This document shows, piece after piece, positions 25,417 to 37,171 of a stretch of DNA of 64,000 nt (position 1 is its first letter; every line of letters begins with the position of its first letter). Both the position numbers and the translations under genes were made by a program. The notes under the pieces were generated by a model. The model was not told where the DNA came from. It searched no databases and was given only the letters and a program-made list of their open reading frames with translations. The stretch lies in assembly GCA_963721455.1 (NCBI GenBank), contig CAVRJG010000052.1:1-64000 (forward strand), in the 5' to 3' direction. Source of the DNA: an uncultured Methanosarcinaceae archaeon (GTDB lineage: Archaea > Halobacteriota > Methanosarcinia > Methanosarcinales > Methanosarcinaceae).

Positions 25417-25490
25417 GGGCCCGTAGCTTAGTCAGGCAGAGCGATGGACTCTTAATCCATAGGCCGGGGGTTCAAATCCCTTCGGGCCCG
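25417..25490 (+). tRNA. tRNA-Lys (CTT)
   Basis: GGGCCCG acceptor stem pairs with CGGGCCC; anticodon arm ATGGA-CT-CTT-AA-TCCAT; TTCAAAT T-loop; CCA not encoded; TATAAATA upstream. Confidence 0.95.
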
Positions 25491-25636
25491 CTAATCTATT
25501 TTTCAAAATTTTTAAATTTTAAAGAATCTATTTTTCATCAAGCTTTTTCTCAATGAGATAAAAGTAGCATCTTTGAAAAAAGATTAATGGCTAAAAGGCT
25601 CAATATATCTAAAATATCTAAATGGGTGCAACTTTA

Positions 25637-33815: not shown

Positions 33816-35063
33816 TCAGATTCCGGTATTGTACCTCAGAATTGCAGCAATGCCTCCAAAGGCGTTCATGAGCTGGGAACCTTCGTCAAAGTCCGTAGAC
33901 ACGAAAATAACCTTTGCACTACTCTTGTCAGCAAGCGCTGAGAACTCGTCCACGATATCGGTAACATCCGTGACATCAAGGGAAGAACCACACTTCGGGC
34001 AGTTCCCGGCTGTGGGAGCTGCCTCTCCCGGCTTCCAGCGCCGCGTCCATTTATTATCGTATCCGCAAACACTGCATTTCGTGGTCACCCTTTCAGCCCG
34101 CAGATCTTCAGAGAGCAAAAGCAATTCCACAGCATTGATTTCGAGGTTTGCTCGGACCTGAGTTTCCCCATAGGCTACCTTGCCTGAATCAGAAATCAAT
34201 TCTTTGAAAAAGGCCTTGACTGCATTCTTCTGCCCCATAAGCTCAAGGTCCTGAAGCTTTTCACCGGCAGCATTCACTAGTTCGGACAGGCCAGATTCGT
34301 CTGTATACGCTATATCAAAAAGCCCGAGGATTTTCTTCAGGAGCTCATGATGAAGGAACTCGCCTGCATAGAACTCTTCCTTTGTTGGAGAAGGTCCCCC
34401 TATCAGGATACCTTTGAGATCTTTGTGGTCAACTGAAAGGAAGATATCACTTGCAGCATCTCCTATCCTCTTGTAGAAATCATGGATTGCAATGAGCCTG
34501 AGCTGCTGGAAACGGTGGGCACTCTGACCACCTTTCCTCTGTTTTCCAGGAACTGTCGAGGTCAGGTTACGGAAGGCCTGGATCCGCTTCCCTACCAGAA
34601 GCCCTACAGTGGCTTCCCTGCGGTCAAGAACCAGAAGCCCAAATGTGCCCTTATCCTTGAGCATATCCTCAAGAGGTTCCAGGTAGAAAGAGGAGTCACA
34701 ATGGTATTTGTAAACGGTAATAGGTTCAGGAGGGACAATTACCTCACTTTCCATGCTCGTTTTGTTGGCTCCGATATCCACAGCCCCTGTGAAATATACG
34801 ATTCCATTTTCAGGAACTTTATCCAGGTATCTAAGTCTTGAGAGCAGAGATTCAATGGCTCCCTGTACGTTCGTTCTGGTAAGCTTGGACTTGATGTTTG
34901 CAGCCTGTCCATGCTCATCTTTCAGCTGGTTTGTGACGTCGAAAATCTGCTTGTCGGGAGGGATGTAAATGGAAATAAGCTCAGTACTTCTTCCCTTCTT
35001 ATCCCTGAGGCCTTCAAGCTTCTTTTTAAATTCGTATTTTTCATGTGCCGATTGTTCAGTCAT
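33816..35063 (-). CDS. prf1: Peptide chain release factor aRF1
   Basis: NIKS, YHCDSSF, GGQS, FGGIAAILRY; CxxC...CxxC zinc-ribbon insert. Confidence 0.96.
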   Translation of the reverse strand: MTEQSAHEKYEFKKKLEGLRDKKGRSTELISIYIPPDKQIFDVTNQLKDEHGQAANIKSKLTRTNVQGAIESLLSRLRYLDKVPENGIVYFTGAVDIGANKTSMESEVIVPPEPITVYKYHCDSSFYLEPLEDMLKDKGTFGLLVLDRREATVGLLVGKRIQAFRNLTSTVPGKQRKGGQSAHRFQQLRLIAIHDFYKRIGDAASDIFLSVDHKDLKGILIGGPSPTKEEFYAGEFLHHELLKKILGLFDIAYTDESGLSELVNAAGEKLQDLELMGQKNAVKAFFKELISDSGKVAYGETQVRANLEINAVELLLLSEDLRAERVTTKCSVCGYDNKWTRRWKPGEAAPTAGNCPKCGSSLDVTDVTDIVDEFSALADKSSAKVIFVSTDFDEGSQLMNAFGGIAAILRYNTGI

Positions 35064-35272
35064 TTCAAAAATTCCCCGATGAAGAAAGTAATGTGATAAG
35101 ATTCTGGTATTTGCGGTAAATTTGAGATTAAGTCTGTTATTGAATTTGACACAGGCATGTTTAAAGTGAAACTGACAAATTTAAGGCAAATTAATTTGAA
35201 CTCTCGAATCTGTTATGGAATTATCAATTAATAAGATATTGAGTTTTCCTGAGATTATCGAATTTAATTCTA

Positions 35273-35385
35273 GATCATTAATTCGAACCTACCAATTTGA
35301 GATCATTAATTCGAACCTACCAATTCGAGATCACTAATTCGAACCTACGAATTTGAGATCATTGATTCGAAAGTATCAATCTGAG
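35273..35385. repeat. 28-bp tandem repeat ~4 copies (GATCATTAATTCGAACCTACCAATTTGA)
   Basis: Head-to-tail copies without spacers. Confidence 0.8.
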
Positions 35386-35883
35386 ATTTGATTTGAGATT
35401 ATCCGTCTGCAATCATAATAAATTTAGTGATTCAGTTTACAATTTGTTTAGCTTTTCGGTTAATTTAACAAAGGGTAAACGTAGGATTTGATAAGGACAA
35501 ATCATACAGCGAGTTCCTGTCTCAACCGAAATCTGAATATAAAAACCGCTCAGAACACGACGAACCTGAGAGTAAGAATACGCCTAGCCAGAAAAGCCGA
35601 AATCCCGGATTCCGGTAAAAACCAGCTTATGCTGCGCAAACCTGCCCTGTTTCGTATTCTGTTGATCGCACTAGATGTGAGACATAATTTTACTCAGACT
35701 GTGTCTAATTAGTTTAAAATCGGATTAGTCCCCGCAGGGATCATATCCTAAATGAAACTTGAGTTTATATTTGTTTCTATCCCCTAACTTAAATTATATA
35801 TTCATACACATATAAAAATTTTCCTGTATATTGCAGTATATTGGTTTCTGCTTTAGAAACTATTTTTCTCCAAAAATTTGGGT

Positions 35884-36921
35884 TTAATCAAGGCAGGAGA
35901 CCCTTTTAGCCGGAGACTTTTTTCCGTCCTTGGAAAGCAGGACTACTCGACTGATTTCAGATTCATCTGCGATTTCGTATCTCAGATGTTTTGCAAGTTC
36001 CTGGGAGAACTCCAGCACCTCTTCATGAGTTGGCATGGCAGATCGGTCAAGGCGGAGCCGTGAAAAGCCCAGATGCATGTACGCTTTTATTTCCACAAAA
36101 TCTGGGGAGGCCTTTTTGATCAGTTCGGCATAAGCTTCCGGATTGAACATGTTTTCGCCTTTTACCAGTGTCGTCCTTATGACTGTCCTTGAGTTTTTCT
36201 GTTTCATCAGGGACAGAGACTCGTTGATCTTTTCCCACAGTGCAGGCGATTTGGGCTGGCAGACTTTCAGATAGGTTTCCAGATCAGGAGCATCGAGACT
36301 CATGTAGAGCTGGGAAGGGAATACTTTTGCAAGCATTTCCGGGACTGTCCCGTTTGTGACCAGAAAAGTCGTAAAACCTCTTTTCTCATATTCCTCGATA
36401 AGTTCTGGAAGGTAAGGGTAAAAGGTCGGCTCCCCGGACAGGGAGATTGCAACATTATTCGGCTCATTGCCCTCAAGCCAGCGTTCCTTAAGTGCATTCG
36501 GAGAGCCGCCAAAACCCGTGATTAACTTGCGCTGGCAGGCAATGCTTTCTTCTACTATCTTCTCGGGAGAGTCCCATTCCCCAGGCACAGGAACCGGAAC
36601 CTCAGTCGGGCGCCAGCAGAAGAGGCAACGCTGGTTGCACATAAGAGTGGGAGTCATCTGAAGGCAGCGATGGGACTGGACTCCATAGAACTTAGATTTA
36701 TAGCAAAAGCCCTGACCGTTCATAGCGTGTCTGAGCCAGAGACAGGTCTTAACAGCCGAATGGCGGCCTGCAAGGGCATAGCCCTGCTTTTTCAGGAGGG
36801 TTTTAAAATCAGGGATACCAAAAGGAATGGAAGTAAGCTCTTCACCCCGAATTTCTTCCTGGATTTCCGGGAAATCTTCCCCGGGATTTTCATTTTGTTC
36901 TTCCGGCTGCATTTTTCGCAT
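35884..36921 (-). CDS. taw1: tRNA wyosine biosynthesis radical-SAM enzyme (4-demethylwyosine synthase)
   Basis: HSAVKTCLW, CYKSKFYG..SHRC.QMTP, CNQRCLFCWR, SLSGEPT, VTNG. Confidence 0.93.
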   Translation of the reverse strand: MRKMQPEEQNENPGEDFPEIQEEIRGEELTSIPFGIPDFKTLLKKQGYALAGRHSAVKTCLWLRHAMNGQGFCYKSKFYGVQSHRCLQMTPTLMCNQRCLFCWRPTEVPVPVPGEWDSPEKIVEESIACQRKLITGFGGSPNALKERWLEGNEPNNVAISLSGEPTFYPYLPELIEEYEKRGFTTFLVTNGTVPEMLAKVFPSQLYMSLDAPDLETYLKVCQPKSPALWEKINESLSLMKQKNSRTVIRTTLVKGENMFNPEAYAELIKKASPDFVEIKAYMHLGFSRLRLDRSAMPTHEEVLEFSQELAKHLRYEIADESEISRVVLLSKDGKKSPAKRVSCLD

Positions 36922-37171
36922 ATTAAATCTTTGTGGTATATATAAGGATCGGAAAATAATTTTGGGGAGAATTCGGGAGGGTTTCGGAAGCTCAATGGAA
37001 ACATTTCAGGGCCAGCTATCTGACAGGCAGCTAACTAGGCCGGCTTTCAGATCGAATTCAGCCAAAATCAGTAGAAATCAATAAGAACCCAGTCGAAACC
37101 AGTCGAAACCAGTCGAAACTCAATAAAAAATCAGTGAAAATGATCAAAAGTCAGTCAAAAATCAATTGAAA

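Follow-up and report, generated by a model that had tools for sequence, protein, structure and literature searches.

A conserved structured RNA with an invariant four-codon open reading frame in front of the release factor gene aRF1 in three genera of Methanosarcinaceae

In E. coli, the release factor gene prfB (RF2) is autoregulated by +1 frameshifting at an in-frame UGA. The bacterial attenuators trpL, pyrL, and tnaC are ribosome dependent, and tnaC senses release at a stop codon, where a stalled terminating ribosome decides whether transcription continues. In methanogens that decode pyrrolysine (Pyl), aRF1 and Pyl-tRNA compete at UAG, and the stem-loop PYLIS, for which Rfam families exist, lies downstream of the UAG in methylamine methyltransferase mRNAs. 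A long 5' leader that also yields a small RNA (sRNA), UpsM, precedes the dcw cluster of R. sphaeroides (PMC5089854). Here we analyzed a stretch of 64,000 nucleotides (nt) from an uncultured Methanosarcinaceae archaeon (contig CAVRJG010000052.1 of assembly GCA_963721455.1), referred to below as the window. Its minus strand carries, in this order, the genes for the DNA polymerase small subunit and taw1, an 820-nt gap, aRF1, and argS. The gap holds a new conserved structured RNA element, which is read on the minus strand like aRF1, is fixed in front of aRF1 in three genera, and is expressed in Methanosarcina mazei. An earlier note on this DNA had postulated a structured leader at this place and on this strand, and that part of its proposal was borne out.

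The locus resembles prfB in that the output of a release factor gene may depend on the speed of its own product at an early stop codon, a form of negative feedback by way of termination efficiency. However, the prfB stop codon sits inside the RF2 frame and is escaped by a frameshift, whereas the aRF1 frame of the window is uninterrupted. The stop codon considered here ends a separate 4-codon open reading frame (ORF) ~610 nt upstream, and there is no frameshift site. No premature in-frame stop was found inside the aRF1 coding sequence, either in the window, where the ORF is open for 415 amino acids, or in the aRF1 matches of 61 genomes of the family. With trpL, pyrL, and tnaC the locus shares a short leader ORF, a folded RNA, and a U tract upstream of the regulated gene. 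It differs from them in belonging to an archaeal system, which ends transcripts by U tracts and aCPSF1 rather than by hairpins or Rho, in offering no clear terminator/antiterminator alternative, and in that translation of its short ORF is only predicted. The UpsM leader is similar in being long and conserved and in having an internal terminator-like site, so that a short RNA and a read-through mRNA may share one promoter, but it comes from another domain of life and has no sequence or structural relation to the element.

The conserved noncoding element covers ~380 nt of the minus strand (35816-35405), beyond which conservation collapses into a spacer. Used as a query, the DNA of 35400-35880 gave a single match in 21 of the 24 genus genomes searched (71-85% identity over 481 nt) and none in 16 genomes drawn from five further families of the order. 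The narrower query 35535-35790 matched 54 of 59 genus genomes and all 39 of those with a completeness of at least 90% and a contamination of at most 5%. It found one copy per genome, the exceptions being G065, with two matches, and G057, with two fragments of one locus. Forty-nine full orthologs were cut out between two anchor blocks and then aligned, and a 22-sequence alignment was also used. In each of the 47 loci with enough flanking sequence, the element lies upstream of aRF1 and shares its strand.

A covariance model was built from alignment A1, in which MAFFT aligned 47 orthologs without regard to structure. The model gave full-length matches in 34 of 34 genomes of genus g1, 6 of 6 of genus g23, and 1 of 2 of genus g12, that is, in 3 of 16 genera, and in none of 108 genomes from 13 other genera of the family. 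In g23 and g12, too, the element sits between taw1 and aRF1. Even with its filters off, the model reached a best E value of only 0.11 on 13 aRF1 loci from nine other genera. In those 13 loci the gap between taw1 and aRF1 is short, the closest long open frame stopping 100-558 nt ahead of aRF1, and a short upstream ORF (uORF) of the form ATG..TAG was not found. A scan of 34000-37000 against Rfam 15 (both strands, E up to 10) returned three chance matches, with E values of 2-6 and scores of 13-19 bits against gathering scores of 45-103, none of them within 35405-35816. One weak match, to the HTH-XRE RNA family at 36313-36361 (minus strand), inside taw1, scored 19.4 bits (E = 2; gathering score, 49.8) and was taken as chance.

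The GC-richer block of the gap described previously is real, with a GC content of 0.40-0.52 over ~35490-35670 and of 0.20-0.33 in the flanks. The same holds for the TATA-like blocks, which were found at ~35816-35809, 35801-35794, and 35772-35765 and lie within the conserved block. The upstream end of the element comprises the following:

35816-35809 and 35801-35794, minus strand: two TATA-like blocks, TTTATATG and ATATATAA, respectively, a candidate promoter conserved in the 22- and 49-sequence alignments and in g23

35763..35780, minus strand: near-invariant block ATAGAAACAAATATAAAC, with 1-3 variant letters in 49 sequences, and ATGGAAACACATATAAAC in g23

The block at 35763..35780 is a candidate for a third TATA-like box, for the 5' end of the RNA, or for both. 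From the position of these blocks, the transcription start of the leader would be expected at about 35786-35771.

The center of the element folds into a three-way junction, the parts of which are listed here together with the hairpin H1, which lies upstream of it:

35553..35659, minus strand: three-way junction domain of P1, Ha, and P2-Hb, recognized by covariation in 47 orthologs

35659-53 with 35559-53, minus strand: helix P1, GAAUACG with CGUGUUC, which begins 11 nt after the UAG of the short ORF

35652-49 with 35641-38, minus strand: helix Ha, AAAC with GUUU, part of the junction

35637-34 with 35583-80, minus strand: helix P2, GCGC with GCGU, part of the junction

35633-35584, minus strand: Hb, an arm of variable length inside P2

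35579-35560, minus strand: conserved 20-nt single strand AUUCUUACUCUCAGGUUCGU, which precedes the 3' strand of P1

35722..35748, minus strand: hairpin H1, GGAU/AUCC (35748-45/35725-22) and UCCC/GGGA (35740-37/35732-29), with modest support

The junction fold is shown by covariation. In A1, 96.0% of the 696 cells of P1, Ha, and P2 are standard pairs, compared with 18-52% in controls with the 3' partners shifted by 1-3 columns. Both sides have changed in 8 of the 15 pairs (35 cells), and none of 500 shuffles reached the covariation score. P1 alone is 99.4% paired and includes 59 G.U cells. These would be C.A mismatches on the other strand, which fixes the aRF1 strand as the one from which the RNA is read. 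In a model-fitted alignment that includes the distant homologs, 89.2% of cells are paired, and 7 pairs have changed on both sides. The distant homologs keep UGAGUA..AUG UCU CAY AUC UAG UGC, the 11-nt spacing to P1, and the U tract, and their P1 carries compensatory changes (GAAUGC/GCAUUC and AAUGUG/CACAUU). Hb is a long hairpin in both major clades despite their different sequences. For H1, RNAalifold on 48 sequences gave 7 pairs, 3 with changes on both sides and many with G.U. Folds of single sequences were treated as leads only, and RNAalifold over 390 nt gave weak energies owing to gappy columns.

Two hairpins on either side of a second TAG had been pointed out in the earlier note, and both are present in the letters. 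The first (AAGCUG 35628-35623 with CGGCUU 35599-35594, around CCGG AAU CCGG) is the tip of the conserved arm Hb, which also takes in the second TAG. The second (CUCAG 35570-35566 with CUGAG 35553-35549) is not conserved; 70% of its cells are paired, a value equaled by 98 of 500 shuffles. Near-identical octamers, CGTATTCT (35582-35575) and CGTGTTCT (35559-35552), lie 23 nt apart, and each is complementary to AGAATACG at 35660-35653. An alternative helix, X:Y1, would join the 5' strand of P1 to the near-repeat CGUAUUCU (35582-75). In it, 85% of cells are paired, the center pair fails, and one column covaries with the P1 5' strand (A-U in 24, G-C in 12). X:Y1 may be an alternative conformer, although it is weaker than P1 and the evidence for it is thin.

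Immediately upstream of the junction lies the short ORF, referred to here as the mini-ORF:

35671..35685, minus strand: mini-ORF AUG UCU CAC AUC UAG (encoding M S H I), its pattern the same in all 56 orthologs

35689..35694, minus strand: invariant GAGUAA, containing a weak Shine-Dalgarno (SD)-like GAG and possible pseudoknot partner of UUACUC 35575-35570

The form ATG TCT CAY AYY TAG was found in 49 of 49 genus orthologs and in 7 of 7 homologs of g23 and g12. Variation is limited to CAC/CAT, ATC/ATT, and ATC to ACC/ACT, and two of the three variable sites are third codon positions. The distance from the UAG to P1 is 11 nt in 45 of 47 orthologs and 10 nt in the other 2, and it is 11 nt in the sister genera as well. 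In G047 and G049, a 12-nt tandem duplication, ATTATGTCTCAT (orthologs of 35688-35677), produces the in-frame peptide MSHIMSHI ending at the same TAG. An upstream in-frame ATG in G065b gives MSKIMSHI before the stop, and the G004 clade has a 19-codon extension.

The GAGUAA block and UUACUC may form a pseudoknot. Most of the six core pairs are retained; 4 sequences have A-U in place of G-C, 13 have A.C, and 83.9% of cells are paired compared with 83.4% in shuffles. A second pseudoknot register, CUGAG/CUCAG, was no better than shuffles.

The junction and the invariant letters could also be explained by a leader that binds a protein or a small ligand, as an autogenous operator of the ribosomal-protein type or a riboswitch would, with the three-way junction as the sensor and the AUG..UAG letters as RNA contacts. 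The covarying junction with its long conserved single strand (35579-35560) and invariant flanking blocks is what such an RNA might look like, UCU is invariant even at a four-fold degenerate site, and there are possible tertiary pairings, GAGUAA/UUACUC and UGUCUCA/UGAGACA. However, there was no Rfam match with E up to 10, no ligand or protein can be named, and the third-position variation at two of three variable sites, together with the in-frame duplication, fits codons as well as it fits RNA contacts. We regard this explanation as quite unlikely.

The mini-ORF is the beginning of a longer frame on which the earlier note had based its model, a uORF of 83 codons with two amber codons in which read-through by Pyl-tRNA, in competition with termination by aRF1, would tune aRF1. 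The letters are as described (minus strand): ATG 35685-35683, TAG 35673-35671 (codon 5), TAG 35586-35584 (codon 34), and TAA 35439-35437. Thus, the frame and both TAGs exist in this genome, and tRNA-Pyl and PylS are present. The length of the frame is nevertheless what chance would produce, since 74 of 500 dinucleotide-preserving shuffles of the 820-nt gap contained an ATG frame that ran for 82 or more codons without TAA or TGA. The alignment of orthologs, which had been suggested as a check, found the ATG and first TAG in all 56 sequences, but the frame and the second TAG were not kept among the 49 orthologs. The ATG, the first TAG, the first hairpin, and the TATA-like blocks all belong to the block of 71-85% identity and so exceed chance by far. 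The stop that follows the first TAG in frame is again a TAG, at codon 34, in just three of the 49 (G000, G065a, and G070). It is an immediate TGA (TAG TGA) in 18 of 49 and a TAG at codon 24 in one clade, and it is scattered elsewhere in the remaining orthologs. Other species have CAG, AAG, TAC, and the like in place of the second TAG, and the variable-arm hairpin between the two TAGs has indels that are not multiples of three and break the frame. On this comparative evidence, the long double-amber frame is a chance feature of this one genome with no part in the mechanism proposed below.

The link to pyrrolysine fared no better. aRF1 was found in 61 of 61 genomes of the family and PylS (TIGR02367, above cut-off) in 58 of 61, representing all 14 of the 14 genera sampled. 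PylS is therefore present in nearly all sampled genomes of the family, but the leader model matched in only 3 of 16 genera, so the distribution of the element does not follow the use of Pyl. The element resembles PYLIS in placing an RNA structure shortly after an in-frame UAG in a Pyl-decoding methanogen. It differs in matching neither PYLIS nor any other Rfam family and in that read-through would end at once in the 18 orthologs in which TGA directly follows the TAG. The model of two read-through ambers is already contradicted by these comparative data, and we consider it extremely improbable. In M. mazei, TAA makes up 53% and TGA 42% of stop codons, which makes TAG the rare stop according to the figures given in PMC11456600. 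Sensing of tRNA-Pyl in the manner of a T-box was also considered and rejected; the leader duplex energy of tRNA-Pyl ranked 49th among 52 tRNAs, in scores that are not meaningful for such long sequences anyway, and the UGGC adjoining the second TAG is not conserved.

Downstream of the junction, the element continues through a U tract and a further conserved segment:

35541..35552, minus strand: UGAGCGG followed by U5 (35545-35541), with CGGTTTTT conserved in alignments

35405..35540, minus strand: downstream conserved segment, defined by sequence conservation and including the AACCGAAAAGCUAAAC block

35524-35518, minus strand: UGAGACA, complementary to UGUCUCA 35684-35678 at the start of the mini-ORF

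35503-35498 with 35490-35485, minus strand: hairpin GAUUUG/CAAAUC in the downstream segment

35272..35387, minus strand: tandem repeat of 28 nt x 4.1 in the variable spacer between leader and aRF1

The tract starts eight nt after P1 (CGG UUUUU, 35548-35541) and lies 126-130 nt past the UAG of the mini-ORF. It is present in all three genera, as U4 in 3 genomes and as U6-U7 in g23 and g12. The archaeal termination signal is described as oligo-U tracts that act with aCPSF1 (PMC8716108), and the tract is a candidate site of premature termination or pausing. A long-range contact between UGUCUCA and UGAGACA is possible and compatible with the data, though unproven; it is kept via wobbles in several lineages, with one mismatch in g23 and no compensatory double change. 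The spacer between leader and aRF1 is 101-555 nt long among the 47 orthologs. In g23, an array of 29 nt x 4.1 occupies the same place in the spacer (L095:1631-1749), and motifs resembling AUCUCAA recur in many spacers. In the 47 upstream regions, only GGGGA and a few A/T-rich blocks are conserved near aRF1, and there is no clear TATA box in the last 130 nt before the gene.

Evidence that the element is transcribed comes from M. mazei and from metatranscriptomes. In M. mazei Go1 (NC_003901.1), the supplementary data of PMC11456600 list the following at the orthologous locus:

1611957-1612982, plus strand: TYW1 (MM_1346)

1613453-1613620, plus strand: sORF_144

1613824-1615071, plus strand: aRF1 (MM_1347)

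sORF_144, with 56 codons on the aRF1 strand and 204 nt before MM_1347, appears uncommented in supplementary file 9 among 314 unannotated small ORFs, and the paper says nothing of a conserved RNA fold, of the mini-ORF, or of a link to aRF1 (PMC11456600). Its row gives DeepRibo as the source (score negative, rank 5567), "manual curation_Ribo-seq: yes," the context "intergenic," no proteomic detection, and BlastP "no" (PMC11456600). sORF_144 is the ortholog of ~35657-35502 of the window; it begins in the 5' strand of P1, spans the U tract, and terminates at a TGA of the downstream block. The peptide printed for it is identical to the translation of the G013 ortholog. A small ORF curated from ribosome profiling (Ribo-seq) inside the ortholog shows that the aRF1 strand is transcribed here and that its RNA occurs in ribosome fractions. 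Because sORF_144 spans the U tract, at least some transcripts continue beyond it.

Only two metatranscriptome runs contain part of the gap (shares of 0.20 and 0.11), in assembled contigs of unknown strand that cover aRF1 and 35402-35550. No contig covers 35551-35821, a lack that speaks neither for nor against transcription there. The RNA contigs of both studies end at 35549/35550, just behind P1, and this common end is a weak hint of an RNA end. A contig break near 35403 was dismissed as an RNA end; it coincides with the tandem repeat and a variant joint.

The Ribo-seq signal raises the question of whether sORF_144 is a small-protein gene whose protein accounts for the conservation. Besides its status as a Ribo-seq-curated unannotated ORF (PMC11456600), its frame is intact in 11 of 15 clade-II genomes (51-55 codons, same TGA), and paired indels that restore the frame (-2 with -1; -4 with +1) were found in four of them, G009, G011, G068, and G014. 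The genomes with an intact frame are G007, G009, G011, G068, G013, G014, G008, G047-G049, and G060, with an ATG or GTG start inside the 5' strand of P1. However, the frame is broken in 4 of the 15 clade-II genomes, none of 34 other genus genomes has a start codon at this position (ATA, ACA, GCA, and others occur), and the stops there are scattered. The window itself lacks a start in this frame, and TGA 35552-35550 closes it. Covariation at these nucleotides follows RNA helices, and the published row, with its negative DeepRibo score, lack of proteomic detection, and BlastP "no," argues against a protein as well. A small-protein gene is thus a very unlikely explanation of the conservation; the clade-II frame may be chance or may encode a lineage-specific small protein that overlaps the RNA fold.

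More weight has to be given to an independent sRNA gene with its own promoter (35816-35763) and an end at U5 (35545-35541). Such an RNA of ~230-245 nt would act in trans or bind a protein and would lie beside aRF1 only through inherited gene order. Past the stop codon of taw1 the element has conserved TATA-like blocks of its own, the U tract follows a stable domain, and the spacer to aRF1 is variable and rich in repeats. The M. mazei authors classed the region as intergenic rather than as a 5' untranslated region (UTR), but their table does not place sORF_144 "on sRNA" either (PMC11456600). Many sRNAs are known in Methanosarcina (PMC5378194, citing Jager et al.). Yet conservation goes on for ~135 nt past the U tract, sORF_144 and its Ribo-seq cover run across the tract, and the RNA contigs cover 35402-35550, downstream of it. 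For the reverse complement of the invariant 20-mer, there is no other site in the genome with up to 3 mismatches and one unrelated site with 4. Because the order of taw1 and aRF1 is identical throughout the family, the position of the element cannot decide between a leader and an sRNA. An independent sRNA remains in our view unlikely, although it is a substantial possibility.

We tentatively favor, with somewhat less than even confidence, a reading in which the element forms the 5' portion of a long leader on the aRF1 mRNA. With transcripts terminated early or processed near the U tract, this leader would modulate aRF1 expression and control the amount of full-length aRF1 message. Transcription would start behind the TATA-like blocks, and the RNA would form H1, expose the 4-codon mini-ORF, and close the three-way junction 11 nt later, in the fold that covariation shows. 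RNA polymerase could then terminate at the observed U5, eight nt behind P1. The proposed decision is between a stop or cleavage near 35550-35541 and run-on through the repeat-bearing spacer into aRF1, set by the state of the leader.

The mini-ORF would be the most attractive sensor of that state. The input would be a ribosome on the mini-ORF, whose dwell at the UAG would depend on aRF1 activity; with the UAG in its A site, the leading edge of the ribosome would reach the base of P1, 11 nt downstream. The conserved 11-nt spacing (45 of 47 orthologs and the sister genera) gives a geometry that fits this ribosome-sensing idea. Of the features expected of an attenuator, a terminator-like U tract, a candidate terminator, lies between the mini-ORF and aRF1. 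For a translated leader ORF speak the invariant AUG..UAG (56 of 56) and its in-frame duplication; against it speak the SD-like GAG of only 3 nt and the invariant UCU, which suggests a constraint at the level of the RNA. The specific proposal that this is an archaeal release factor feedback, in which the wait of the ribosome for aRF1 at the mini-ORF UAG, of all stop codons the rarest in these genomes and subject to competition from Pyl-tRNA, decides between early end and run-on, is unlikely when taken by itself.

Several observations weigh against the leader reading or its sensing step. A clear pair of mutually exclusive terminator and antiterminator structures was not found (X:Y1 and CUCAG/CUGAG were tried), and we know of no requirement for a hairpin in archaeal termination. 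The four-fold degenerate third position of UCU never varies, which points to a constraint on RNA sequence rather than on peptide, and only the weak SD-like GAG of 3 nt lies ~10 nt upstream of the mini-ORF. With aRF1 as far as 480-610 nt downstream, the spacer may well harbor a promoter closer to the gene. The element was not found in 13 genera that have aRF1 and PylS, so these archaea have no general need of it. Finally, the label "intergenic" for sORF_144, rather than "in 5' UTR," suggests that the authors of the table did not assign it to a known aRF1 UTR (PMC11456600).

The genes on either side of the element and their domains are the following:

35884-36921, minus strand: taw1, Pfam Wyosine_form and Radical_SAM

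33816-35063, minus strand: aRF1 ORF, 415 amino acids, Pfam eRF1_1/2/3, that is, eRF1 domains 1-3 end to end

35061..35077, minus strand: ribosome-binding region of aRF1, GGGGA (35077-35073) and start ATG (35063-35061), kept in the 47 upstream regions

The single aRF1 of the genome is its only class-I release factor; a second weak match (34% over 115 amino acids) is a distant paralog. The genome encodes tRNA-Pyl with anticodon CUA, and the tRNA scan found tRNA-Lys (CTT) at 25417-25491 (plus strand) as the sole tRNA of the window. A second aRF1 paralog with 68-70% identity occurs in G100, G112, G135, and G086 of g23 and in G017 of g1. The leader model has one match per genome, in g23 beside the copy that is 87-89% identical to the aRF1 of the window, and the paralog therefore seems to be leaderless.

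Searches turned up no publication on a leader, a uORF, or autoregulation of aRF1 in archaea, and the names MM1347, MM_1347, and MM_RS06985 were not found in the main text of any paper. The available parts of PMC13663744 and PMC5378194 contain nothing on aRF1 leaders. As far as these sources extend, the sole published trace of the locus is the uncommented sORF_144 row (PMC11456600).

An RNA of ~380 nt that matches the neighboring genes in conservation and combines a proven fold with an invariant AUG..UAG offers a concrete target for mutation in genetically tractable Methanosarcina strains. It adds a candidate cis-regulatory RNA family to the archaea, where very few are known, and makes the coupling of translation termination to release factor synthesis in archaea directly testable. 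If the element is merely an sRNA or a stabilizing leader, it would still count as a new conserved RNA motif and deserve an entry in Rfam. If UAG sensing is true, the element would be the counterpart, by uORF attenuation, of prfB frameshifting in bacteria and the first ribosome-sensed attenuator in archaea.

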